Shown here in pieces: positions 12,891 through 29,019 of a stretch of 64,000 bases of DNA. The stretch is taken from contig SVSP01000008.1 of NCBI GenBank assembly GCA_015064255.1, positions 1,352 through 65,351 of the forward strand, written 5' to 3'. Below the pieces are notes generated by a model. That model searched no databases. It was not told the origin of the DNA and worked only from the letters and a program-made list of their open reading frames with translations. Position 1 is the first letter of the stretch, and each line of letters opens with the position of its first letter. Made by a program: the position numbers and the translations under genes. Origin of the DNA: Oscillospiraceae bacterium (GTDB lineage: Bacteria; Bacillota; Clostridia; Oscillospirales; CAG-272).

Positions 12891-12919
12891 TATATGAAAT
12901 TATTATTTACCTATTATTT

Positions 12920-12991
12920 GCCCTCATAGTTAAATGGATATAACAAACCCCTCCTAAGGGTTAGTTATGGGTTCGATTCCCGTTGGGGGTG
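12920..12991 (+). tRNA. tRNA-Arg (anticodon CCT)
   Basis: Hand-folded cloverleaf: acceptor GCCCTCA/TGGGGGT, D stem GTTA/TAAC, anticodon stem AACCC/GGGTT with loop CTCCTAA, and a GGTTCGATTCC T-loop. No CCA is encoded. Confidence 0.85.
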
Positions 12992-12992
12992 T

Positions 12993-13026
12993 AAAAAATC
13001 CGTACACCAAACGTACGGATTTTTTT
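12993..13026 (+). terminator. intrinsic terminator after tRNA-Arg
   Basis: ATCCGTAC / GTACGGAT stem flanked by an A6 run and a T6 run. Confidence 0.8.
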
Positions 13027-13058: not shown

Positions 13059-13089
13059 TTGACATTACCCTTGGGTAATGGTTTATAAT
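13059..13089 (+). promoter_or_regulatory. MerR-type promoter: TTGACA-N19-TATAAT with dyad CATTACCC-tt-GGGTAATG in the spacer
   Basis: -35 at 13059-13064 and -10 at 13084-13089 give a 19-nt spacer. The perfect 8-bp-arm inverted repeat at 13063-13080 lies inside it, directly upstream of a MerR-domain gene. Confidence 0.7.
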
Positions 13090-13114
13090 ATAAACGATAT
13101 ATGGAGGTGCTGAT

Positions 13115-14854
13115 ATGAAGATAAACAACGCCGAAAAAGCAACCGGTCTTACGCAAAAAGCCATTCGCTTATACGAAAGCAAGGGGCTTATCAAGGTATC
13201 AAGAGATTCAAACGGGTACAGAAATTATTCTGAAGATGATATCGAAGCCTTAAAAAAGATAAAGCTTTTCAGAAGTGTCGGTGTCTCTGTCACAGACATA
13301 AAGCTTTATTTATTCGGAGTTATAAGTCTTTGTGAACTTATGGACAAGCGCAAAGGCGAAATTTTGACCGAAAGCGGAAAGAATTCCGAAAAATACAAGT
13401 TATGTGAAAGCATATCAAAATCCACGTATCTTGAAGATATAAAAAGTAAGGACACTCTCGACGATTTTACAGATTTCAGCGAAAACGAAGAAACAAACAG
13501 CGAAAGCCACGGAAAGCTGTGTGTCGGAATCGACATCGGAACAACAACGGTCAGCGCGTCGGTCTTTGATATTGAGAACAAAAAACAGCTTGAAGCATTC
13601 TCACTTCCGCATAATTCATACCTGCGTTCAGACGGCTTCTCAGAGCAAAGCGTTTCTATTATTTTAGACAAGGCAGAAAAACTGCTTTATCATATACTAA
13701 GCTGCTATCAAGAAGTTGTCAGCATAGGACTTTCCGGACAAATGCACGGACTTGTTTACATAGATTCTGACGGAAAACCTTTATCTGATCTTATAAACTG
13801 GCAGGACAAGCGTGCCGACATTCCGCTGTCGGACGGCAAAACCGCCTGCGAGATCATAAAGGAAATAACAGGCGAAAATATCTCGACAGGCTACGCACTT
13901 GCAACACATTATTACAATCTGAAAAATGATCTTGTTCCGAAAAATGCGGTCAGCTTTTGCAGTATAGCGGATCTTTTTTCTATGAAAATATGCGGTCTTA
14001 AAAATGTTGCAGTGCACATGTCATTTGCTGCAAGCTTCGGTCTGTTTGACGTTAAGAACGGTACGTTTATGGCGGAAAAGCTCTCTCTTCTCGGGATCGA
14101 TAAAAGCTTTCTGCCCCTCGTAAGCAGTCAAAGCGTTATCGTCGGCCATCATAAAGATATTCCCGTTTCGATAGCACTCGGTGACAATCAAGCAAGCTTT
14201 TTGGGTTCCGTAAGTGAACACACCGAAAGCATTCTTGTAAATATAGGTACGGGTTCACAGGTATCGTCCGTAAGCAATTACCGTGAAACGCAAGGCGACG
14301 TAGAGCTTCGACCTTTCATCGAAGGAAAATACCTTGTCTGCGGATGTGCGCTTTGCGGCGGATTTGCATATTCGATGCTGGAGAACTTTTTCAGAAGCTA
14401 CACTTCAAGTGCAGGATTTGAGGAAGCATCGCAGTACAAAACAATCAACAAGCTCGCACTTGAAGCATACGAAAACGGCGACGGAGGTCTTGACGTTGAC
14501 GTTTCATTTTTCGGCAAACGAAGCGATCCGAGTTGCAGAGGCTCTGTAAAAAATATAGACAGAAACAATTTCACTCCGCGCGCTCTTGCTCTCGGAATTT
14601 TGAAAGGAATGTGTAATGAGCTGTACGATCTGTATGAATCCTTCAGCGAAAAGAAAACTCTGATAGTCGCTTCCGGGGGCTGTGTAAAAAAGAACAACGT
14701 ACTTAAAGATCTTATAAGCGACCGATTCTCGCTTCCCGTATATCTTAACGCGATCGAAGAAGAAGCGGCAACCGGCGCGGCACTCTTCTCCGCTTTTGCA
14801 TCAGGCAAAATAAAGTACACCGACGGATTTTCAGAATACATAAGCTATCTTTAA
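13115..14854 (+). CDS. MerR-family HTH domain fused to an FGGY-family carbohydrate kinase domain (sedoheptulokinase/xylulokinase-like)
   Basis: Residues 1-70 are MerR-like (GLTQKAIRLYESKGLI...GYRNYSEDDIEALKKIKLFRSVGVSVTDIK). The rest is FGGY-like (GIDIGTTTVS, GLSGQMHGLVYID, LGDNQASFLGS, ASGGCVKKNNVLKDLISDRFSLPV...ATGAA). Confidence 0.8.
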   Translation: MKINNAEKATGLTQKAIRLYESKGLIKVSRDSNGYRNYSEDDIEALKKIKLFRSVGVSVTDIKLYLFGVISLCELMDKRKGEILTESGKNSEKYKLCESISKSTYLEDIKSKDTLDDFTDFSENEETNSESHGKLCVGIDIGTTTVSASVFDIENKKQLEAFSLPHNSYLRSDGFSEQSVSIILDKAEKLLYHILSCYQEVVSIGLSGQMHGLVYIDSDGKPLSDLINWQDKRADIPLSDGKTACEIIKEITGENISTGYALATHYYNLKNDLVPKNAVSFCSIADLFSMKICGLKNVAVHMSFAASFGLFDVKNGTFMAEKLSLLGIDKSFLPLVSSQSVIVGHHKDIPVSIALGDNQASFLGSVSEHTESILVNIGTGSQVSSVSNYRETQGDVELRPFIEGKYLVCGCALCGGFAYSMLENFFRSYTSSAGFEEASQYKTINKLALEAYENGDGGLDVDVSFFGKRSDPSCRGSVKNIDRNNFTPRALALGILKGMCNELYDLYESFSEKKTLIVASGGCVKKNNVLKDLISDRFSLPVYLNAIEEEAATGAALFSAFASGKIKYTDGFSEYISYL

Positions 14855-14869
14855 CGAAAGGGCCACACC

Positions 14870-16084
14870 ATGAACGAAACAAGTGCAGTTAAAATATCTT
14901 TTGATGTAAAAAAGCTTCCTTTTTATTCTGTTTGCCACAAAAACGGCAGAAAAACACTTGAAATTCAAGCGTTTGACGGAATTCTTACCCTATCTGTGCA
15001 GTATGACTTCGAAAGACTTCCTCTCAGCTTAAGCGGCGAGATCGAGGAAGGCGACAAGGTAGAAGCCCTGCTTTTTACTCACAGAATCGAACTCTATATA
15101 AACGGTATTTTGCAGGACGAGGAATGGCCTGCGGGTAAAATGCTGTTTAAGTCCGGTGATAAATTTACCTTCTGTGAAGGAATTAAGGTTTGTGAATACA
15201 AGGAAAAAGAAGCAGACCTTCCGAGCGTTATCTCGAGCTTTGAGAACGCCGAAGGCTGGTATCCGGGCAACGGCGTCTTCGTAGGCGACTGTATGCCATA
15301 CCGAAAGGATGGAGAGTATCACGTACTCTATTTAAAGGACAGACATCATCACAGAAGCAAATGGGGACTCGGTGCGCACCAGTGGGAGCACATATCCACA
15401 AAGGATTTTAAAAAATGGAATATTCACCCTATGGCTGTACCGATAACAGACCCGTCAGAAGGCTCTATCTGCACAGGCTCGTGGATACGCAGCGATAACA
15501 AGGAATATCTCTATTATACCGTAAGACGCGGAAAAGGAGAACCTGCTACGATTTGCCGCAGTATATCTCTTGACGGCTACCACTTTACAAAGGACACCGA
15601 TTTCGGTTTTACCGTTTCCGAAAAATATCACGCGGCAAGTGCGAGAGACCCTAAGGTAATCAGTGGCGAAGACGGCGCTTTCCATATGTTTCTGACAACA
15701 AGTCTTCTTTCGGAAGGAAAAGGCTGTCTTGCACACTATATTTCATTAGATATGGAAAGCTGGAGCGAATGCGAATCGCCGATTTATATCGCGCCCGACG
15801 GTGCACAGCCCGAATGTCCCGATTATTTTAAATATAACGGCAAATATTATCTCATTTTCAGCCTTCACGGCAGAGCGCACTATATGTTTTCTGACAAGCC
15901 TTTCAAGGATTTTGTTATGCCCGAAAATCCTATCATCCCTTGTGCAAGCGTACCCAAGGGCGCATTTTGGGACAACAGGATCATTTTCATAGGCTTCAAA
16001 GGCATAGGCGGTTATGCGGGCTCTATGACCTTTATGGCGGCACGCTCATCCGATAGCGGAGAGCTTATTTTTGAGGAGCTCTGA
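14870..16084 (+). CDS. GH32-family (beta-fructofuranosidase-like) five-bladed propeller hydrolase, cytoplasmic
   Basis: RDP motif (SARDPKV), EC motif (QPECPDYF) and a divergent nucleophile block (GDCMPYRKDGEYHVLYL) in place of WMNDPNG. No signal peptide. Confidence 0.6.
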   Translation: MNETSAVKISFDVKKLPFYSVCHKNGRKTLEIQAFDGILTLSVQYDFERLPLSLSGEIEEGDKVEALLFTHRIELYINGILQDEEWPAGKMLFKSGDKFTFCEGIKVCEYKEKEADLPSVISSFENAEGWYPGNGVFVGDCMPYRKDGEYHVLYLKDRHHHRSKWGLGAHQWEHISTKDFKKWNIHPMAVPITDPSEGSICTGSWIRSDNKEYLYYTVRRGKGEPATICRSISLDGYHFTKDTDFGFTVSEKYHAASARDPKVISGEDGAFHMFLTTSLLSEGKGCLAHYISLDMESWSECESPIYIAPDGAQPECPDYFKYNGKYYLIFSLHGRAHYMFSDKPFKDFVMPENPIIPCASVPKGAFWDNRIIFIGFKGIGGYAGSMTFMAARSSDSGELIFEEL

Positions 16085-16159
16085 CACAGAATTTCCATTA
16101 TCTATTGACAACACTTTGGTACCGTGCTAAAATTAGTAAAAACTATACGGAGTGCATTT

Positions 16160-18826
16160 ATGATATTTACCGACTCTGAGCTTAATAAATATGTGATTAA
16201 TTTTAAAAATATTGAAAACGACGGTCACATCGGAATTCCCGTTGATATGACTATACTCTTCGACAGAGAAAGATTCACGCCGAAATACAGTCACGGCGGC
16301 ACACCTATTGTAATATACGTAGTTAATACTATGGTAGAGCGTATCGGCCGAGCTTCCGACGAAGAAATCATTTCGGGTATGATCGACAGAGGATATATCG
16401 TCACAGTTCTTGACTATCTCGGAAATGATAACGCAAAATTCCCAAAGATAGATATGTCCGTACAGACTATACGTCAGTCTGTAATAGCGGGCGAATATTT
16501 CAAAGATCTCAAAGGCTTCAACGCTGGAAGATACCCCGAAACGCTTGTAGTTCCCGCAGGATACGATATTTCTTACGGAAACGTATATTGGGAGTTTGAC
16601 AAGCACGGAAGCGACGGTACTCTCGAAAAGATAGTCGAGATCTGGAATAACGATTTCCGCGGTACCTCCGGCGAAAAGCTCGTAAAATGGACAGATGCAA
16701 ACGGAAATCGCAAAACAGTTCAAAACGGTCACGACGGAAGTGAACCCATATGGTGTGACAAGTACGGAAATCCCGACGAAAACGGAGAATACGTAAGGAT
16801 AAAGCACTCTTTTCCTCAAAGAATAGCAGACTGTGCAAAGCCTGACGGCGAGCCTATCGATTTAAAGCTTTATATGCATATCGTATATCCCGTAAATCCC
16901 GAGAAAAAGGTGCCCGTAATGTGCCTTTCAAGCTGTCTTGAAAACCTCTGCATATGCTCGGCAACACCCGATCAGACTCATATGAACGGTGCACTCTTTA
17001 ACGGTTATGCGGGCGTTATGTTTGATTACGGATATACTCCTATGGCAAGACTTGACCACTACGGATATTTCGACGGCTATCCAAAGCCGGGATATATCAC
17101 AGGGGACAACCCTACTTACTCTGTAAAATTCTACAACGACCGTTCTGACACAGCCGCTATGAGATACATCCGATATCTCGCACTCAGCGACGAACGTTTT
17201 GCCTTTGATATCGATGCTATCGGCGTTTACGGAAACTCCAAGGGAAGCTGGATGTCTTTTATAGGCGAAGCCGATCCGGACGCTATGCCCTCGAGACGTA
17301 TTTTCGCAGGTCACCACGATGAAACACGTTACGAAAACGGCGACACCGAAAGCCGCGACGGCATAAACGGCGGCGAAGAACAGCCTTGGCTTTCTTACAA
17401 CGGTCAGAAAATATTCGGAGGCGCAAATCTAACCTATTCCTGCACGGGCGGTACTGTAAATGCTATTACCAAAGGACACGCTCCAATGTTCGTTTCGTGC
17501 AACAGACGTGACGAATCCTGCTTTTGGACATCAAACTCTATGGTAAACTTAAGCAGAATATATGATATCCCTTCAATGTGGCTTGAAGTTCCCATCGCAC
17601 ACGCTCTCGTTCACGACGAAGACCTTTTCTACGGATCCGACAGTTACGTATCATTCTTCGATTTTGCCAACTATCATTTAAAACACGACGCTGTTAAAGT
17701 AATAGGCGCGCGAGTAAACAAATACGCTTTTCCTGTTTCTGTCACCATTCTCTTCTCGGGTGTTGTAGCGGACAGCGAAACATCCAAGATAAAGATAACC
17801 GACAAGTACGGAAATATTCTTAACGGAAGCTTCTCGTCCTGTTACGGAAAATCCGAGTGGACCTTTACTCCTGCCCTGCCCACCTACGGAGACGGATATA
17901 CACTCTTCGTTCCCGATACTCTGATCGGAGAAAACGGAAAAGCCATCCAAAGTGAATATTCGTATGATATAGACTTCGGTTACGGCAAGATAGAATATAC
18001 CGACTGCGTTATTAAAAAAACATCAGAATGCCCCGAAAAGAAATACATCGCATTCGAAGTAACAAATGACGGCGTGAACACCGTTTGTGCTTATAGCGAA
18101 AACGGAGTCAAGATCGGATCTGTAAATACAAGCGGAAAAGGTTGGTACAAGCTCGATATTACATCGCTCGACCTTCCCGAAAATATGAAATTTACTCTTA
18201 AGTGTGAAAAAGAAGCCGGTAAATTCACACAAAATACCGAATTTTTACTTTGCCACAATGCTTTCGGCGGCAGGGAAAACGCGCCCGACGGCACAAGTGC
18301 AGTTGTAGTAAAGGGTGTCAAGACACGAACAAACTTTCCGACCGAAGAATTCTACGCATATCCCGATGGAGCACTGATATGCAACGATATAATCAAAGAC
18401 GGACCTTTAGACGAAAGCGACATCGGAAGACGCTTCCGTATAAGCTTTAAGGTTTATGATACAGATAATCGTTACATCAGCTTCGGACTTAAAAGCGCTT
18501 CCTCAATGAACGAAAGCACCGCCGACTACCACCGCGTAATGAAAAACGAATATACCGTAAAGGGTGAATGGAAAGAATATGATCTTGATTACACCGTTTA
18601 CGAGCCTATGTTCGGCAAGTACGCGGAGCATAAGCAGTGCCTTACCCTTTCTTATCACGGCAAGGGTAACGCCGACACTCCTATTTATTTTTCGGACATC
18701 AAGTGCGAAGAAACTGTAAGCGAAGCGCTTATCGGCAAGGTTGCTATTCTTGAAGAGAAGGACGAACGAATCCTTCTTCTCGGACAAAGTGACATCGTTT
18801 GCCACAAATCCCCTTGGTCAAAGTAA
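16160..18826 (+). CDS. large alpha/beta-hydrolase-like protein (putative carbohydrate esterase) with C-terminal beta-rich domains
   Basis: Nucleophile-elbow-like GNSKGS and no signal peptide. The preferred start is 16160 (ACGGAG plus 7 nt); the ORF track has a GTG at 16124. Function is uncertain. Confidence 0.4.
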   Translation: MIFTDSELNKYVINFKNIENDGHIGIPVDMTILFDRERFTPKYSHGGTPIVIYVVNTMVERIGRASDEEIISGMIDRGYIVTVLDYLGNDNAKFPKIDMSVQTIRQSVIAGEYFKDLKGFNAGRYPETLVVPAGYDISYGNVYWEFDKHGSDGTLEKIVEIWNNDFRGTSGEKLVKWTDANGNRKTVQNGHDGSEPIWCDKYGNPDENGEYVRIKHSFPQRIADCAKPDGEPIDLKLYMHIVYPVNPEKKVPVMCLSSCLENLCICSATPDQTHMNGALFNGYAGVMFDYGYTPMARLDHYGYFDGYPKPGYITGDNPTYSVKFYNDRSDTAAMRYIRYLALSDERFAFDIDAIGVYGNSKGSWMSFIGEADPDAMPSRRIFAGHHDETRYENGDTESRDGINGGEEQPWLSYNGQKIFGGANLTYSCTGGTVNAITKGHAPMFVSCNRRDESCFWTSNSMVNLSRIYDIPSMWLEVPIAHALVHDEDLFYGSDSYVSFFDFANYHLKHDAVKVIGARVNKYAFPVSVTILFSGVVADSETSKIKITDKYGNILNGSFSSCYGKSEWTFTPALPTYGDGYTLFVPDTLIGENGKAIQSEYSYDIDFGYGKIEYTDCVIKKTSECPEKKYIAFEVTNDGVNTVCAYSENGVKIGSVNTSGKGWYKLDITSLDLPENMKFTLKCEKEAGKFTQNTEFLLCHNAFGGRENAPDGTSAVVVKGVKTRTNFPTEEFYAYPDGALICNDIIKDGPLDESDIGRRFRISFKVYDTDNRYISFGLKSASSMNESTADYHRVMKNEYTVKGEWKEYDLDYTVYEPMFGKYAEHKQCLTLSYHGKGNADTPIYFSDIKCEETVSEALIGKVAILEEKDERILLLGQSDIVCHKSPWSK

Positions 18827-18844
18827 TGTTATATCAACATTAAG

Positions 18845-18880
18845 GGCTCACTCTACCATTCGTAGAGTGAGCCTTTTTTT
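18845..18880 (+). terminator. intrinsic terminator
   Basis: A 12-bp stem (GGCTCACTCTAC / GTAGAGTGAGCC), 5-nt loop and T7 run. Confidence 0.85.
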
Positions 18881-18976: not shown

Positions 18977-20194
18977 ATGGATACATACAGCATCGGCAGA
19001 ACAATTGCCGCGTTAAGAAAAAAGAACAAAATGACACAATCCGCACTCGCTGAGCAGCTCGGTGTAAGCGACAAAGCGGTGAGCAAATGGGAAAACGGAC
19101 AAGGCTACCCCGACATCGCTCTCTTCCCCGCTATTGCCGAGGTTTTCGGTGTCACTATCGATTATCTGATGAACGGCGAAAAGAAAGGAATTGCAATCGC
19201 GGGAAATCTTCTTGTCGATATAGTAAAGACGATAGACTGCTATCCTGCACTCGGCACGCTTGCAAATATTTCGCACGTTTCAAAAGCAGTGGGCGGGTGT
19301 GCCGCAAACACCTCTATCGACCTTGCAAAAATCGACCGAAGTATTCCGATATCGGTATTCGGGAAGCTCGGTATGGACGAAAACGGACGTTACATCGTAT
19401 CACAGCTTCAGAATCACGGTGTGAACACAGACGGAATAAGCTATTCATCTTCTACTGAAACAAGCTTTTCAGACGTTATGAGTATGCCGTCGGGTGAGCG
19501 TACATTTTTCCACAAAAGCGGTACAAACACCTTATTTTCCCCCGAGGACATCGACCTTTCCTCTCACAGTTACGAGCTTTTACACATAGGTTACATACTT
19601 CTTCTTGAAAAGTTCGATGCTCCCGACCCCAAATACGGCACGGTAATGGCTCGTTTTCTGCACGATATTCAGTCAAAGGGAATAAAGACATCTATTGACG
19701 TTGTAAGTGCAAATATAGACAACTACGGCGAGAAAATCATTCCCTCGCTGAAATATTCAAATTACGCAATAATGAACGAAATAGAGTCAACAAGCACGTG
19801 GCGTTTAAGTGCACGCCTCCCGGACGGCAGTATAAACCGCCAAAATATTCGACTTGCTATGGAGAAGATGGCAGACGCCGGTGTGCGCGACAAAGTGATC
19901 GTTCACGCAAAAGAGGTTTGCTTCATTCTCGACTGTATAACTTCCGAATTTTGTGAAATTCCGTCACTTAAAATACCGAAGGAAGAAATTCTCGGAAGCG
20001 TCGGCGCAGGTGACGCTTTCTGCGCAGGCTGTCTGTACGGTATTTATCACGGATATACAAACAGACAAATTCTCGAATTCGCATCTGCTGCCGCGGCATC
20101 AAATCTTTTTTCGGAAAACTCTGTTGACGGAATGCTGACGAGAAACGAAATAATGCAGCTTCCAGCAAAATACGGAAGAATTGCAGAAAAATAA
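18977..20194 (+). CDS. XRE-family HTH domain fused to a PfkB/ribokinase-family sugar kinase domain
   Basis: N-terminus MTQSALAEQLGVSDKAVSKWENG (Cro/C1 HTH). The C-terminal part has PfkB signatures (VGGCAANTS, GSVGAGDAFCAGCLYG). Confidence 0.8.
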   Translation: MDTYSIGRTIAALRKKNKMTQSALAEQLGVSDKAVSKWENGQGYPDIALFPAIAEVFGVTIDYLMNGEKKGIAIAGNLLVDIVKTIDCYPALGTLANISHVSKAVGGCAANTSIDLAKIDRSIPISVFGKLGMDENGRYIVSQLQNHGVNTDGISYSSSTETSFSDVMSMPSGERTFFHKSGTNTLFSPEDIDLSSHSYELLHIGYILLLEKFDAPDPKYGTVMARFLHDIQSKGIKTSIDVVSANIDNYGEKIIPSLKYSNYAIMNEIESTSTWRLSARLPDGSINRQNIRLAMEKMADAGVRDKVIVHAKEVCFILDCITSEFCEIPSLKIPKEEILGSVGAGDAFCAGCLYGIYHGYTNRQILEFASAAAASNLFSENSVDGMLTRNEIMQLPAKYGRIAEK

Positions 20195-20240
20195 TACTGA
20201 AAAACTCATAAAAAAAACGATACAAAGGAGATTTTTTACA

Positions 20241-20777
20241 ATGAAACGCGATATTTACGAAAAACAGGTAGCTTCAGCTCTTGAAATGTACGAAAAAGCA
20301 TCTATAATACTTAATGACGACGAAAAAAATAGGATAGAAGTCGTAGATTTTGAACTCGGAAGAGTAAACGAGGTCGGGCTTCAGATACTCACATACATAA
20401 ATACCGAGCGCGTATGCGCAAAGGAAATGGTTCTCCTTCCCGGTCAGACCTGCCCCGAGCATAAACACGTTCCGACAAACGGAATGCAAGGAAAAGAAGA
20501 AACATTCCGATGCCGTTACGGCAAGGTATATCTTTACGTTACGGGTGAAGGCGACAAAAATAAGATCGCGGCAAAGATTCCCCCGACAGACGTAAGTGTT
20601 TTCCACGAAGTAATACTCTGTCCCGGTGAACAGTACACCATCTATCCCGAAACGTGGCACTGGTTTCAAGCAGGAGAGGACGGCGCTGTTATCTCCGAAT
20701 TTTCAACTCGCAGTACCGACGAAACCGATCAGTTTACAGACAAGCGTCTTGTGCGCGAAGTAAAGATCGAAGACTGA
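20241..20777 (+). CDS. D-lyxose/D-mannose-family cupin sugar isomerase
   Basis: Cupin metal motif CPEHKH...KEETFRCRYG and HWFQAGEDGAVISEFST. The ATG at 20241 has an AAAGGAG RBS, so the upstream ORF-track extension was rejected. Confidence 0.7.
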   Translation: MKRDIYEKQVASALEMYEKASIILNDDEKNRIEVVDFELGRVNEVGLQILTYINTERVCAKEMVLLPGQTCPEHKHVPTNGMQGKEETFRCRYGKVYLYVTGEGDKNKIAAKIPPTDVSVFHEVILCPGEQYTIYPETWHWFQAGEDGAVISEFSTRSTDETDQFTDKRLVREVKIED

Positions 20778-20803
20778 CTTTTTTCGAAAGGAATAACAAA
20801 AAA

Positions 20804-21631
20804 ATGCTAGTAACCTTAAACGATATTTTACCCGCTGCGCAGGCAGGCCGCTACGCTGTCGGACTTTTCAATACAACTGATACCGATATGCTTGAAGCCG
20901 CTATATCCGCAGCAGAAGAACTGCGATCTCCCATCATTATAGGAACTGCGGAAATTCTCCTTCCTTACGGAGAGCTTTCGCTCATAGCTCCGTCTGTTAT
21001 TGCCGCCGCAAAACGTGCTTCCGTGCCTGTCGTAGTCCATTACGATCACGGTCTTACATTTGACCGCTGTATTGAAGCCTTGAAGCTCGGATTTTCAAGC
21101 ATAATGTTTGACGGATCCGCAGGTGATACGGAAGTAAATCTAGCCGCCACGCGCGAAATAGTAAAGATCGCGCACAGTTTCGGCGCGTCTGTCGAAGGCG
21201 AGATCGGTCACGTAGGAAACGCAGATTCAAACGACAACGACAGCGACGATATGTATACCTCTCCCGAGGAAGCCGTAGAATTTGTAAAAGCCACGGGAGT
21301 TGACGCTCTTGCCGTAGCTATCGGAACGGCACACGGCGCATACAAGACAAAGCCTCGCCTTGACATTAAGCGTTTGTCCGAGATACGCTCTGCACTCGAC
21401 ACACCGCTTGTACTTCACGGCGGCTCGGGGCTTTCGGATGACGATTTCAGAAATACCATCGCAAACGGAATCGCCAAAGTAAATATTTTCACCGATCTTT
21501 GTGTAGCGGGGCTGGATGCTGTGGAAAATTATGACGGCAGCTATCTTGAAACACGAAACGCAAAAGTAAAAGCTATAAAAGAAGCTGTTATGCAGAAAAT
21601 GATCTTGTTCGGCTGCAGTGGCAAAGCGTAA
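20804..21631 (+). CDS. class II ketose-bisphosphate aldolase (fructose/tagatose-1,6-bisphosphate aldolase family)
   Basis: Motifs HYDHG, EGEIG, GTAHG and LHGGSG. Internal ATG start at 20804. Confidence 0.85.
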   Translation: MLVTLNDILPAAQAGRYAVGLFNTTDTDMLEAAISAAEELRSPIIIGTAEILLPYGELSLIAPSVIAAAKRASVPVVVHYDHGLTFDRCIEALKLGFSSIMFDGSAGDTEVNLAATREIVKIAHSFGASVEGEIGHVGNADSNDNDSDDMYTSPEEAVEFVKATGVDALAVAIGTAHGAYKTKPRLDIKRLSEIRSALDTPLVLHGGSGLSDDDFRNTIANGIAKVNIFTDLCVAGLDAVENYDGSYLETRNAKVKAIKEAVMQKMILFGCSGKA

Positions 21632-24069: not shown

Positions 24070-26445
24070 ATGAACAAAAACATCTGCACATTAAACGGTA
24101 CTTGGAATCTCACTTTTACACTTAACGATAAGAAATATACTGCGGCGGCGTGTGTTCCCGGAAACGTCGAGCCTTCTCTGCAAGCGCTCGGGCTCTGCGG
24201 AGATTATATGCCCGCCGACAATGAACGCTCAATGATAAAATTCGAAACGGTGGATGACTGGACATACACTACCGTTTTCGACGCGCCCGAGCTTCCCGAC
24301 GGTTATACGCGAAATCTTGTATTTGAGGGTATCGACACCCTTGCAGAGATATATCTCAACGGTGAAAAGCTCGGAAACACCGAAAATATGCATATGACCT
24401 ACAAATATCCGGTAAATCTAAGACCTTTCGGTAACGAGCTTACAGTTATCATCAGAAGCGTGGATCTTTGGGCTCGAAATCATCCGCACGACCAGTTCAG
24501 CAGACCGCAAAATTTCCTCGGTGAATACGACACGCAGACAAATATGCGAAAAACACGTCATCAATGGGGTTGGGACAATGCGCCTCATCTCATCACCGCG
24601 GGAATATTCCGTCCCGTATATATCGAAAACCTTCCGCCGAAGCGTTTTGAAGATATCTATCTCTTCACCGAAGAAATTCGCGAGGACATCGCTGTTATAG
24701 GTATTTCTTATTTTTACAAAACACCCGTCAAGGATCTTTCAGATCACCGCATCCGCATATCGCTTATCGACGGTGAAACAGTTGTACACTCCTCGACCTT
24801 TCCGATAAACTTCGTTCAGGGTCTTGCGAAGATCGGTGTTGACAGAAACAAAATACAGCTTTGGTGGCCGAGCGGTTTCGGTGATCCCAAGCTTTACGAT
24901 ATAAAGATCGAAATGCTTGAGGACGGTGAAAGCGTTGCCGTTTATGAAAGAAAATTCGGAATACGCACGATACATATCGACCACACGGACGACATAACCG
25001 AGGACGGAAAAGGCGATTTTATCTTCAAGGTCAACGGCGAAAAGGTTTTCCTGCGCGGAACAAGCTGGAAGCCCCTCGATCCCCTTGCTTCCGAGGCGGA
25101 CAGAAAGACCAAGACTCTTGATGCACTAAGGGAAATACCCAAGCTCCACTGCAATATGGTAAGAATATGGGGCGGTGGAATTTACGAAGACAAGGAATTC
25201 TTCGACTTCTGCGACGCGAACGGAATTATGGTATGGCAGGACTTTATGTTCGCCTGCGAAATTCCCTCTACCGAAGAGGATTACTGTAAGCTCGCGTCCG
25301 AGGAAGCGGTACAGATAATCAAAAAGCTTCGCAATCATCCGTCGCTTGCACTTTGGTGCGGTGACAACGAATGTGACAGATGCATCGAGTGGGTAATGCC
25401 GCGCTCTAATATGATTCCCTCTCAAAGCGTTATCACACGCCGTGTACTCAAGGATGCAGTTATTCTCAACGATCCCTACCGTTACTACCTTCTCAGCTCT
25501 CCGATCTGCTCGGACGAGTTCCACTTGAGCCGCCATACAAACGGAAATCCGAGAAACGAGCGCACGTTCCGCGTAATGACAGATCACGGTTATATATATC
25601 CTTCCGAAATTCATTTTTACGTCACACCCGACAAATACAGCGATTCTTTGCGCGAAACAAAGAGCAGGATCCTTGGCGAAACGGGTCCTATACAGCTTTG
25701 TGCCATAGCGGCAAACGACGTTACCTTTGAGCGCGAAAAAGCGAGAATGGAGCGTCTTTGGAATTCTCCGCAAATATGGAGCAACGGAAAGCATCAGAAT
25801 GACGGATACTTCACTGTTTGGCGCAACACGGGAAGTATGGTTTGCAAGCACTTTTTCGGACGTGATTTCACATTTGACGAGTGGAAAGAATACAGACTCG
25901 CTGTAAACGTGGTCTGCGCAGAGGTATTTAAGGACGCGCTTGAATACTCCAGAGCTGTGCGTTGGGAGAAAACCGGCGTTATCTGGTGGTCGCTCTGCGA
26001 TATGTGGCCTATGGCGTTCAACTATTCGGTTATGGATTACGAGCTTGGTCCCAAGCTTCCATACTTCTGGATAGAAAAATCGCAGCAGGAATTCTTGCTT
26101 GCTGCTGTAAATACCGAGGTTGGCGGAGAAATCTCTCTGTACGCGCTCAACGATACGCTCGAAAAGCGCAAGGTAAAATACAGCGTAAAAGCATACGATC
26201 AAAACGGCAACTGTGAAACGATAGCGACGGGAAATATAACGCAGGAGAAGAATTCATCATCTCTCGTACAGCGTATATCCAATCCCGAGCAGTCCGAGCT
26301 TTGGATAATCACCTGGAGCGACGGTGTGCGCGAGTACAAAAACCACGCGTTTACGGGCAAGGCAAGCTGGGACGTAATGAAAAAATGGGTCGATATCATC
26401 GCAGATGAATTTGGTATTGCCGACAAAATACTCGAACTGAAATAA
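24070..26445 (+). CDS. GH2-family glycosidase, beta-mannosidase-like (paralog B, 791 aa)
   Basis: Same motif set as paralog A, collinear and of the same length. Confidence 0.8.
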   Translation: MNKNICTLNGTWNLTFTLNDKKYTAAACVPGNVEPSLQALGLCGDYMPADNERSMIKFETVDDWTYTTVFDAPELPDGYTRNLVFEGIDTLAEIYLNGEKLGNTENMHMTYKYPVNLRPFGNELTVIIRSVDLWARNHPHDQFSRPQNFLGEYDTQTNMRKTRHQWGWDNAPHLITAGIFRPVYIENLPPKRFEDIYLFTEEIREDIAVIGISYFYKTPVKDLSDHRIRISLIDGETVVHSSTFPINFVQGLAKIGVDRNKIQLWWPSGFGDPKLYDIKIEMLEDGESVAVYERKFGIRTIHIDHTDDITEDGKGDFIFKVNGEKVFLRGTSWKPLDPLASEADRKTKTLDALREIPKLHCNMVRIWGGGIYEDKEFFDFCDANGIMVWQDFMFACEIPSTEEDYCKLASEEAVQIIKKLRNHPSLALWCGDNECDRCIEWVMPRSNMIPSQSVITRRVLKDAVILNDPYRYYLLSSPICSDEFHLSRHTNGNPRNERTFRVMTDHGYIYPSEIHFYVTPDKYSDSLRETKSRILGETGPIQLCAIAANDVTFEREKARMERLWNSPQIWSNGKHQNDGYFTVWRNTGSMVCKHFFGRDFTFDEWKEYRLAVNVVCAEVFKDALEYSRAVRWEKTGVIWWSLCDMWPMAFNYSVMDYELGPKLPYFWIEKSQQEFLLAAVNTEVGGEISLYALNDTLEKRKVKYSVKAYDQNGNCETIATGNITQEKNSSSLVQRISNPEQSELWIITWSDGVREYKNHAFTGKASWDVMKKWVDIIADEFGIADKILELK

Positions 26446-26544
26446 TTCAAATTTATTATCTCCTATCCGTTTTATATTGACAAAATTACAAATATGTGTT
26501 AAATTATCTGTAATTCCAAAGAAAAACGGATAGGAGCTTTTGTT
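26446..26544 (+). promoter_or_regulatory. repeated regulatory module, copy 1: inverted repeat CTCCTATCCGTTTT ... AAAACGGATAGGAG flanking TTGACA-N17-TGtTAAATT
   Basis: Arms at 26460-26473 and 26523-26536, -35 at 26477-26482, -10 at 26500-26505. The right arm contains the SD (GGAG) of GH2-C. Confidence 0.6.
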
Positions 26545-28920
26545 ATGGACAAAAAAATTCATTCATTAAACGGATTTTGGAATCTGAGCTTCACACTCGA
26601 AGACAAAGCCTACAACACAACTATATCTGTTCCTTGCAACGTTGAGCCCACCCTTGAAAAGATGGGCCTTTGCGATGACTGTATGCCCGCAGATTACGAA
26701 TTCGCAACCGCAAAATTCGAAACTGTCGATGACTGGACGTACACTACCGTATTCGACGCCCCCGAGCTCCCCGACGGTTATACGAGAAATCTTGTATTCG
26801 AGGGTATAGACACCCTTGCAGAGATATATCTCAACGGAGAAAAGCTCGGAAACACCGAAAATATGCATATGTATTACAAGTATCCCGTAACCCTGAAGCC
26901 GACAGGCAACGAGCTTAAGGTCGTTATCAGAAGCGTTGACCTTTGGGCGCGCGAGCATCCTCACGACGAGTTCAGCAGACCGCTCTTCTTCCAGGGTCAT
27001 TACGACGGATTTATGAACGTCAGAAAAAACAGGCTTCAGTGGGGTTGGGACAACGCTCCCCGCCTTATCACTTCGGGAATAATCCGTGACGTATATATCG
27101 AGGATCTTCCTCCGAAGCGTTTCGAAAGTATGTACGTTTATACTAACGAAATATATAACGATTACGCTATAATAGCTATCTCTTACATCTATAAAACACA
27201 CACTAAGGTTCTTACAAATCACCGTCTGCGTGTTTCCCTTCTTGACGGCGACGAGGTTATCGGCACTTCACTCTTCCCTGCAAGATTTGTTCAGGGACTT
27301 GTAAAGTTCGGCGTAGAGCGCGGTAAGATCGAGCTTTGGTGGCCAAGCGGATTTGGCAATCCGAAGCTTTACGACCTCAAGATCGAAATGCTTGAGGGTG
27401 AGGATATCACTGCTGTCTACACACAAAAATACGGCATCCGTACGATAGACGTCGAGCATACCGACGATATTTCTGAGGACGGATCGGGTGAATTTCTCTT
27501 CAAGGTCAACGGTGAAAGAGTATTCCTGCGCGGAACAGGCTGGAAGCCGCTTGATCCTTATGCAAGCGAGGCGGACAAAAAGACAAGAGCTCTCGATGCA
27601 CTCAGAGAGATGACAAATCTCCACTGTAACTTCGTAAGAGTTCTCGGTGTCGGCATCTATGAGGACAAAGCGTTCTACGATTACTGCGACGAGCACGGAA
27701 TTATGGTATGGCAGGACTTTATGTTTGCTTGTGAAATTCCGTCGAAGGACGAAGAGTACGGCAAGCTTGTTGCAAAGGAAGCCGAGCAGGTCGTTAAAAA
27801 GTACCGCAATCACACCTGTCTTGCTCTCTGGTGCGGAGATAATGAATGTGATAAATGTATAGAATGGGTACAGCCCACCTCGCAGATACTTCCCTCGCAG
27901 GTAGCAATCACACGTAAGATAATTCCCGACATCATAGTAAGGTTTGACCCTTACCGCCGCTATATACACAGCTCTCCCGTGTCATCCGACCGTTTCCACG
28001 CAGCCCGTCATATCCGATGGACCCCGAGAGACGAATCTACCTTCCTCGTGCATACGGACAAAGGTGTTTTCTCTCCGACAGAGCTTCACTTCTACGTTCC
28101 GCCGCACAGATTCGCCCAGGCACTCAGAGAATCGAAAAACAAGATATTCAGCGAGATCGCGCCCGGTCCGCTTTGCGCTATTTCCAATGACAAGGCTACT
28201 TTTGAGAGAGAAAGAGCGAGAATGGAGCGTCTTTGGAACTGCCCCAGACTTGACAGTAACGGAACTCATCAGAACGACGGCTACTTCACCGTTTGGAGAA
28301 ATTCCGGAAAATTCGAATGCGAGCAGTTCTATGGCCGCGACTTCACCCTCGGTGAGTGGAAGGACTACACTCTTGCAGTTAATATTCTCTGTGCAGAGGG
28401 ATACAAGGACGCAGTTGAGTACAGCAGAAGTGTAAGATGGAGCAAAACAGGTGTACTTTGGTGGTCGCTCTGCGATATGTGGCCTATGGCATTCAACTAT
28501 TCGGTTATGGACTACAAGCTTGGACCGAAGCTCCCCTATTTCTGGATAGAAAAATCCCATCAGGAGCTTCTCCTTGCCGCTACGAGAACTGAAATCGGCG
28601 GAGAAATGTCGCTTTACGCTATTAACGATACTCTTAAAGACAAGAAGATCACATACAGCGTAAAATCCTACGATCAGAACGGAAACGGCAAAACACTTGC
28701 TGTCGGAACTGTATCGCAGGGAAGAAACTCTTCTTCGCTTATTCAGCGCATATACAACAGCGAAGAGTCCGAGCTTTGGATAATTACCTGGAGCGACGGC
28801 GAGCGCGAGTACAAAAACCACGCATTTACCGGCAAGGCAAGCTGGGACGTAATGAAAAAATGGGTCACTATTATTGCAAAAGAATTTGACCTCGAAGACA
28901 AAATACTCGAACTGAAATAA
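26545..28920 (+). CDS. GH2-family glycosidase, beta-mannosidase-like (paralog C, 791 aa)
   Basis: Same motif set. The N-terminal third is closest to paralog A and the C-terminal end is closest to paralog B. Confidence 0.8.
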   Translation: MDKKIHSLNGFWNLSFTLEDKAYNTTISVPCNVEPTLEKMGLCDDCMPADYEFATAKFETVDDWTYTTVFDAPELPDGYTRNLVFEGIDTLAEIYLNGEKLGNTENMHMYYKYPVTLKPTGNELKVVIRSVDLWAREHPHDEFSRPLFFQGHYDGFMNVRKNRLQWGWDNAPRLITSGIIRDVYIEDLPPKRFESMYVYTNEIYNDYAIIAISYIYKTHTKVLTNHRLRVSLLDGDEVIGTSLFPARFVQGLVKFGVERGKIELWWPSGFGNPKLYDLKIEMLEGEDITAVYTQKYGIRTIDVEHTDDISEDGSGEFLFKVNGERVFLRGTGWKPLDPYASEADKKTRALDALREMTNLHCNFVRVLGVGIYEDKAFYDYCDEHGIMVWQDFMFACEIPSKDEEYGKLVAKEAEQVVKKYRNHTCLALWCGDNECDKCIEWVQPTSQILPSQVAITRKIIPDIIVRFDPYRRYIHSSPVSSDRFHAARHIRWTPRDESTFLVHTDKGVFSPTELHFYVPPHRFAQALRESKNKIFSEIAPGPLCAISNDKATFERERARMERLWNCPRLDSNGTHQNDGYFTVWRNSGKFECEQFYGRDFTLGEWKDYTLAVNILCAEGYKDAVEYSRSVRWSKTGVLWWSLCDMWPMAFNYSVMDYKLGPKLPYFWIEKSHQELLLAATRTEIGGEMSLYAINDTLKDKKITYSVKSYDQNGNGKTLAVGTVSQGRNSSSLIQRIYNSEESELWIITWSDGEREYKNHAFTGKASWDVMKKWVTIIAKEFDLEDKILELK

Positions 28921-29019
28921 TTCAAATTTATTATCTCCTATCCGTTTTATATTGACAAAACCTAAAATATATGTTAAATTATCTATGGTTTTAAATAAAA
29001 ACGGATAGGAGATTTCTAC
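28921..29019 (+). promoter_or_regulatory. repeated regulatory module, copy 2 (upstream of the sulfatase)
   Basis: Arms at 28935-28948 and 28998-29011 (16 bp if the flanking AT is included), -35 at 28952-28957, -10 at 28975-28980. The right arm contains the sulfatase SD. Confidence 0.6.

Follow-up and report, generated by a model that had tools for sequence, protein, structure and literature searches.

A widespread MerR-FGGY fusion as a candidate sugar-responsive regulator and kinase in rumen and gut Clostridia

The DNA analysed here, referred to as the window, is a stretch of 64,000 nucleotides from an Oscillospiraceae bacterium (assembly GCA_015064255.1, contig SVSP01000008.1, positions 1,352 to 65,351 of the forward strand). 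Its subject of interest is an unbroken open reading frame (ORF) with an ATG start, the product of which carries a MerR-type winged helix-turn-helix (wHTH) DNA-binding domain in front of an FGGY carbohydrate kinase. The gene lies behind a promoter with an inverted repeat in its spacer, and is followed by a gene for a GH32-like hydrolase. The features of the locus are collected in Table 1.

Table 1. Features at the fusion locus; coordinates are those of the window, residue numbers those of the fusion protein
Feature	Coordinates	Strand	Basis or remark
MerR-FGGY fusion gene	13115..14854	+	579 aa
MerR wHTH DNA-binding domain, residues 1-66	13115..13312	+	Pfam MerR_1, 58 bits; CueR nearest
Helical region, residues 72-111, presumed dimerisation element	13328..13447	+	AlphaFold2 secondary structure; broken at conserved ESGKN (Gly88)
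Flexible linker, residues 112-133	13448..13513	+	pLDDT, dN/dS, conservation; conserved F-x-E-x-E motif
FGGY carbohydrate-kinase domain, residues 134-579	13514..14851	+	Pfam, alignment, fold match
Codon of D140	13532-13534	+	key kinase codon
Codon of S147	13553-13555	+	key kinase codon
Codon of D357	14183-14185	+	key kinase codon; catalytic-base candidate
-35 hexamer TTGACA	13059..13064	+	6/6
Candidate operator, perfect inverted repeat ATTACCC-TT-GGGTAAT	13064..13079	+	7+7
19-bp spacer	13065-13083	+	
-10 hexamer TATAAT	13084..13089	+	6/6; 25 nt before ATG
Ribosome-binding site GGAGG	13103..13107	+	read from sequence; 7 nt before ATG
GH32-like five-bladed beta-propeller hydrolase with N-terminal beta-sandwich	14870..16084	+	404 aa; Pfam Glyco_hydro_32N, 77.5 bits
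tRNA-Arg(CCT) gene, upstream neighbour	12919..12992	+	ARAGORN
Intrinsic terminator-like hairpin and T-run after the tRNA	12993..13025	+	13-pair stem
900-aa protein without family assignment, probably third gene of the unit	16124..18826	+	sub-threshold CBM_4_9, BD-FAE
Strong intrinsic terminator with T-run	18842..18876	+	15-pair stem, 7 G-C pairs

Architecture and spread of the fusion protein

Both halves of the protein are recognised by Pfam. MerR_1 (PF13411) matches residues 1-66 with an E-value of 9e-16 and 58.2 bits against a cut-off of 21.6, and PF00376 is also reached (34.1 bits, cut-off 28.2), while FGGY_N (PF00370, residues 136-364, E 2.7e-24, 86.6 bits) and FGGY_C (PF02782, residues 405-562, E 1.5e-8, 35.1 bits) both score over their curated cut-offs; no ROK-type domain was matched in the Pfam scan of the protein. 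In a sequence search of the PDB, residues 1-60 matched the structure of CueR (E 7e-9), with CarH, TipA and SkgA as weak N-terminal matches, and the kinase part matched the gluconate kinase 3gbt and glycerol kinases. The best NCBIfam model for residues 1-65 was again CueR (TIGR02044, 51.6 bits, under its cut-off). An AlphaFold2 (AF2) monomer model built on 44 family members has a predicted local distance difference test score (pLDDT) of 89.7 and a predicted template modelling score (pTM) of 0.89; pLDDT falls below 50 only at residues 110-121, and the low-confidence linker extends to about residue 133. FGGY structures superpose on the modelled kinase part with a template modelling (TM) score of 0.78 to 3gbt/3ll3 in Foldseek, and by Pfam and Foldseek the two-lobed ASKHA fold and both FGGY domains are present. 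The initial annotation of this DNA, made from the sequence without database searches, had placed a MerR HTH and a complete FGGY kinase in this one ORF, and the Pfam domains and the AF2 model bear it out.

Between the two domains, the model contains helices at residues 72-86, 92-102 and 106-111, the first two separated by the invariant Gly88. E74, K78, R79, K80, G88, Y94 and C97 of this region are invariant or nearly so among relatives, and F121, E123 and E125 of the linker are conserved. An earlier reading of this part as HTH plus coiled coil up to about residue 110 thus holds for its extent (wHTH and helices to about residue 111); the single long coiled coil does not appear in the model. Helices this short and kinked suggest that the allosteric route may differ from that of CueR or MerR: judged by the model, the FGGY domains, not a coiled coil, may be the basis of dimerisation, and the allosteric path may be new.

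The architecture is not peculiar to this genome. The database holds more than 2,000 homologs of the fusion protein, the best 120 of which (58-68% identity, about 573 aa) all carry MerR and FGGY_N and nearly all FGGY_C as well; where named by NCBI, homologs are called 'MerR family transcriptional regulator' and come from metagenome-assembled genomes (MAGs) of Clostridia or Ruminococcaceae. When one genome per species was scanned, relatives turned up in at least 581 species, the fusion being encoded at 44 of the 80 best loci, with rumen and gut Clostridia, Oscillospiraceae, Acutalibacteraceae and Ruminococcus MAGs as hosts of the fused loci. About 40 full-length fused representatives were recovered among the top 150 clusters at 50% identity in an exhaustive HMMER search, and of 300 genomes sampled evenly from the class, 40 have the kinase clade and 5 the fused form. 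A full-text literature search found no characterised MerR-FGGY or HTH-FGGY regulator, in keeping with the initial annotation, which was aware of none. The MerR-FGGY architecture is thus widespread in sequence databases yet uncharacterised.

A fusion of this kind might be an artefact, i.e. adjacent merR and FGGY kinase genes merged by a sequencing or assembly frameshift, a concern raised along with the first description of the ORF. Standalone kinases do exist, and in two Ruminococcus MAGs (L033, 5601-7381; L034, 172-1952) a 64-aa MerR ORF is split off from the rest by a frame change, which reflects either real pseudogenisation or a split, or else a shared assembly error. Against this stand an identical fusion protein on 4 contigs, a continuous reading frame, and full-length fusions with a conserved linker motif in dozens of species (at least 40 species-level genomes, about 40 clusters at 50% identity). 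The MerR and kinase parts have ratios of nonsynonymous to synonymous substitution rates (dN/dS) of 0.113 and 0.112, and the linker one of 0.28, rough values given that dS is high, and by this measure both domains are under equal purifying selection. Conservation of the fusion together with dN/dS rules out a merge of the two genes, for which we see practically no room.

The promoter and operator of the fusion gene

The hexamers upstream of the fusion gene match the sigma-A consensus at every position, and the spacing between them is unusual: among strong promoters in the window's genome, a 17-bp spacer occurs 343 times and a 19-bp spacer 35 times, and no other 19-bp-spacer promoter of the 2.5-Mb genome contains the dyad. 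We compared this arrangement across the related loci. A promoter with a 19-bp spacer and a hexamer score of at least 10/12, 17-74 nt before the start codon, was present at 37 of 40 fused loci and at none of 39 loci encoding standalone kinases. The family consensus is TTGACA TTnaCCtnaGGgnAtgGTT TATAAT, with the dyad centred on nucleotide 8 of the spacer. This strict linkage between MerR domain and 19-bp promoter is the main evidence that the fusion protein binds and controls its own promoter, which it probably does; strong comparative support has thereby been gained for the idea, put forward in the initial annotation, of a protein that signals to its own promoter.

MerR regulators provide the classic example of transcription activated through DNA distortion, and the comparison with them is close at the level of DNA. 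Among the activators CueR, MerR, ZntR and SoxR, whose promoters have spacers of 19-20 bp, it is CueR that the wHTH of the fusion resembles most, and the CueR target in E. coli, PcopA, was confirmed as TTGACC-TTCCCCTTGCTGGAAGGTT-TAACCT, 40 nt upstream of copA. PcopA shares with the fusion promoter the near-consensus hexamers, the 19-bp spacer and a dyad that begins within the -35 and has its centre at nucleotide 8 of the spacer, and several operators of the family come near its spacer sequence, for example TTCCCCTTAGGGAATGGTT at locus L028. The proteins differ more. In CueR and MerR the sensor is a short metal or redox loop that ends a long coiled coil, whereas in the fusion it is a 445-residue kinase fold, preceded by a helical region that is short and kinked in the model; also, the fusion regulator is the first gene of its own operon, and is neither divergent from nor unlinked to it.

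These features bear on a second alternative, in which the MerR domain is a simple autorepressor or a mere tether for the kinase, and induction occurs by release from DNA, with no ligand-triggered distortion. Such a role would fit helices that, in the AF2 model, form no long coiled coil, and it has a precedent in CarH/LitR, MerR-HTH proteins with large sensors that repress through oligomerisation. A plain repressor, though, needs no crippled spacer, and yet the 19-bp spacer accompanies 37 of 40 fused genes and no standalone one; moreover, both the layout and the spacer sequence resemble those of PcopA, on which an activator acts. We therefore consider autorepression or tethering improbable, the single line of evidence pointing to activation rather than plain repression being the geometry of the promoter.

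Searches for further sites gave little. No second operator was found within the window, and the sole other close match to the operator, with 2 mismatches on contig C27, sits within a coding region and not in a promoter; a wider regulon was accordingly rejected. On the minus strand of contig C37 (offset 16632 on the reverse-complemented contig) we observed a 19-bp-spacer promoter with a different dyad, TTGACT CTCAACTAAGCTTTAGGTT TATAAT, which might be bound by another regulator of the MerR family.

Kinase motifs in fused and standalone relatives

We then aligned 40 fused and 41 standalone kinase sequences. D140, G142, T144, GQMHG, W229, GDNQA with D357, N376, GTG, R399, G467, R469, G521, E549 and G554 are invariant in both groups, and T143 is nearly invariant in the 81 sequences. 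In the fusion protein the motifs are D140-x-G-T-T-T, GQMHG at 208-212, W229/D231/R233, GDNQAS at 356-361, N376, GTG at 378-380, SG at 520-521 and E549 to G554. D357 aligns with the Asp of GDQQA, the catalytic base of glycerol kinase 3flc, and we take it to be the equivalent of the catalytic-base Asp D245 of GlpK. Thus the blocks that had been picked out by eye as intact (DIGTT, GQMHG, LGDNQA with its Asp, and the C-terminal motifs) are present and invariant in relatives, and no essential FGGY residue is lost on alignment. The replacement of a Lys by Ser after DxGTT, which had also been remarked on, is real: S147 aligns with a Lys in 3gbt and an Arg in 3flc, and the basic residue that these enzymes have three positions behind the motif is absent. 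The same position is Ser or Cys across the whole clade, however, in fused and standalone kinases alike, and Ser147 was consequently rejected as a sign that catalysis was lost after fusion. A literature search on the role of the equivalent Arg of GlpK returned nothing usable.

In a maximum-likelihood tree of the kinase domains, fused and standalone forms are interleaved, at least 10 changes of state (gains or losses) being needed to account for their distribution. Standalone kinases with 57-68% identity and the same GH32-like neighbour nest within fused clades, and the closest relative of the window's kinase, L023, is itself standalone. No MerR pseudogene remnants were detected upstream of standalone kinases (tblastn, E up to 1), and several standalone kinases retain linker sequence from residue 121 onwards, a sign that their N-terminal domain was probably lost. 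No second copy of the kinase exists in the window's genome (2.5 Mb, 94.5% complete), the next FGGY protein being 26% identical. Together, the nesting of standalone forms, the invariant motifs and the absence of a second copy argue that the kinase has a role independent of DNA binding and that this role is retained in the fusion. On these comparisons we expect the fused kinase to be still active.

The same observations weigh on a third alternative, namely that the FGGY part is a pure sensor that binds a sugar or sugar phosphate as effector without turnover, the protein being a transcription factor only, while another enzyme does the phosphorylation. Three points speak for it: Ser147 takes the place of the Lys/Arg behind the phosphate-1 loop, a gene for a PfkB kinase lies 4 kb downstream, and the combination of HTH and inactive ASKHA-fold kinase is well known from Mlc, NagC and XylR of the ROK family. 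These regulators, like the fusion, have a DNA-binding domain ahead of an ASKHA sugar-kinase fold and control genes of sugar use, but their wHTH is MarR-like rather than MerR-like, their kinase belongs to the ROK rather than the FGGY branch, and they are repressors that have lost catalysis, whereas the fusion is a probable MerR-type activator with no sign of such loss. Ser or Cys at position 147 is equally found in standalone members, where there is no DNA-binding role to justify conservation; the catalytic and ATP-binding motifs are all invariant in the 40 fused sequences; dN/dS is no higher in the kinase than in the DNA-binding domain; and both the interleaved standalone orthologs with the same GH32-like neighbour and the lack of a second kinase copy in the genome tell against a sensor without turnover. 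We regard the pure sensor as rather unlikely, though less so than the autorepressor.

The GH32-like partner, a proposed mechanism and the rest of the locus

The most constant companion of the kinase is the GH32-like gene, which lies directly downstream of it (gap of -25 to +22 nt) at about 35 of 40 fused loci and at 9 standalone ones. Its product keeps the GH32 catalytic triad (nucleophile, RDP, EC) in the invariant motifs FVGDCMP, RDPK and PEC, and its AF2 model (pLDDT 90.8) has levanase BT1760 and the Thermotoga invertase as nearest folds. It is atypical in that a beta-sandwich of about 130 aa precedes the propeller at the N-terminus while the C-terminal GH32 beta-sandwich is missing, and it carries a highly conserved block, YLKDRHHHxSKWGxGAHQWEHIS.

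Other partners of the kinase give further hints of substrate. One of the more distant kinase relatives, P0379, is fused to a bona fide GH32 domain (GH32+FGGY, 1017 aa), and three others, P0325, P0326 and P0381, are fusions of about 800 aa between FGGY and a type I phosphomannose isomerase (PMI). PMI is also the adjoining downstream gene at seven standalone loci (L054, L058, L059, L063, L068, L073 and L080), and in a standalone Acutalibacteraceae/Clostridia clade it overlaps the end of the kinase gene or sits within 20 nt of it. Standalone relatives at 40-45% identity are labelled 'sedoheptulokinase' by NCBI. With such enzymes, of which animal SHPK/CARKL is an example, the fusion kinase presumably has the motifs GQMHG, WQDxR and GDxQAS in common; what sets the two apart is that, with GH32-like, GH32 and PMI partners, fructose or mannose is indicated more strongly than sedoheptulose. 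These fusions and neighbours suggest that 'sedoheptulokinase' is an incorrect or overly narrow annotation. One standalone 'sedoheptulokinase', from Parablautia, lies among genes for a sugar transferase, a mannose-1-phosphate guanylyltransferase and an HAD phosphatase, a context that does not settle the substrate. Because the partners converge on fructose-6-phosphate and mannose-6-phosphate, fructose, or possibly mannose, is favoured as both substrate and inducer; as ligand we rank fructose as more likely than mannose, and mannose as more likely than sedoheptulose.

Taken together, we propose, with a probability of about 0.6, that the protein is a one-component, sugar-responsive regulator of the MerR family whose sensor is a full and still active FGGY kinase, i.e. 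a 'trigger enzyme'. A dimer of the fusion would bind the dyad within the over-long spacer of its own near-consensus sigma-A promoter and, when unliganded, would hold the promoter poised or off, as CueR does at PcopA. Sugar binding, with or without ATP, would close the two lobes of the kinase, and this closure would be transmitted through the linker and the helical region to the DNA-binding domains, realigning the -35 and -10 so that transcription starts. The transcript would in this genome encode the regulator-kinase, the GH32-like hydrolase and the 900-aa protein and run to the terminator behind the latter. The hydrolase probably frees a fructose-like hexose from an imported fructoside or oligosaccharide, and the kinase would phosphorylate it, thereby removing its own inducer. 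We also put forward, tentatively and as something possible rather than expected, that the switch senses flux: the open/closed cycle of an active FGGY hexose kinase would be coupled via the short kinked helices to MerR-type promoter remodelling, transcription of the operon would track turnover and not just occupancy, and the kinase would act as a fructose (or mannose) 6-kinase of FGGY type, an activity that is ordinarily attributed to PfkB or ROK enzymes.

Several observations count against the trigger-enzyme proposal. Firstly, the protein reaches no NCBIfam equivalog, the best being XylB (TIGR01312) with 114 bits against a cut-off of 380, followed by GntK (79 against 649) and GlpK (73 against 590), and the label 'sedoheptulokinase' is a homology name only. 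Secondly, Ser147 could reduce catalysis, or eliminate it, throughout the clade. Thirdly, distortion-type MerR activators typically have a long antiparallel coiled-coil helix, which the AF2 monomer does not show. Fourthly, the promoter is missing at the fused loci L031 and L033/L034 and the GH32-like neighbour at L015, L028, L037 and L050, and gene context beyond that neighbour varies among relatives. Finally, it is from sequence that we infer kinase activity and ligand response.

The trigger-enzyme proposal has partial parallels in known systems. To our knowledge, small domains that respond to metals, redox state or drugs are the sensors of nearly all MerR regulators studied. Large C-terminal sensor domains nevertheless occur in BmrR, TipAL and CarH, and the statement of the initial annotation that MerR effector domains are normally short is in this respect too simple. 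BmrR, TipAL, which drives its own promoter, CarH/LitR and SkgA all join a MerR HTH to a sizeable ligand-binding domain, as the fusion does; their sensors, however, are not known to be enzymes of the regulated pathway, whereas that of the fusion keeps every FGGY catalytic motif. Trigger enzymes such as BirA, NadR and PutA, and GlpK in its signalling, likewise control transcription by substrate availability; an HTH is found at the N-terminus of NadR and BirA, and where GlpK signals via protein partners, the fusion has its own DNA-binding domain. If correct, the proposal would extend activation by DNA distortion to carbohydrate metabolism in a large family of rumen and gut Clostridia, and would define a new class of trigger enzyme as well as a compact sugar-inducible switch made of one protein and one 31-bp promoter. 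The analysis also suggests that, in thousands of gut genomes, a fructan or mannan utilisation module with an unusual GH32-like hydrolase at its core includes proteins labelled 'sedoheptulokinase' or 'MerR family regulator'.

As for the surroundings, the hairpin behind the tRNA gene would insulate the fusion promoter from upstream transcription, and the fusion, GH32-like and 900-aa genes probably form one operon that ends at the strong terminator. The 900-aa protein had no homolog in the 80 related loci, and neither it nor the lyxose-isomerase-like cupin or the sulfatase encoded further on is conserved with the fusion there. The remaining genes of the locus, for an XRE-PfkB kinase, the cupin, a class II aldolase, three GH2 proteins and the sulfatase, form a separate unit; XRE-PfkB, aldolase and GH2 genes were found at only a few of the 80 loci.

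The XRE-PfkB gene of that unit (18977-20194, plus strand), 4 kb downstream, is a second fusion of an HTH with a sugar kinase, in which an XRE-type HTH_3 domain (residues 10-64) precedes a PfkB domain (residues 84-382). This architecture has 3,477 relatives at E<=1e-20, the best 120 of which all carry both domains; where named, they are called 'helix-turn-helix domain-containing protein' and come from the same kinds of Clostridia MAGs. Two of the GH2 genes, of 791 aa each (24070-26445 and 26545-28920), stand in tandem and have the appearance of a recent duplication, each being followed by a promoter-like site, TTGACA-17-TAAATT with a TG extension (26477-26505 and 28952-28980), and a mirrored site on the minus strand. 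The ORFs of the cupin (20181-20777) and the aldolase (20654-21631) overlap by 124 nt as called; the Pfam match of the aldolase begins at residue 53, and its true start is therefore probably later.

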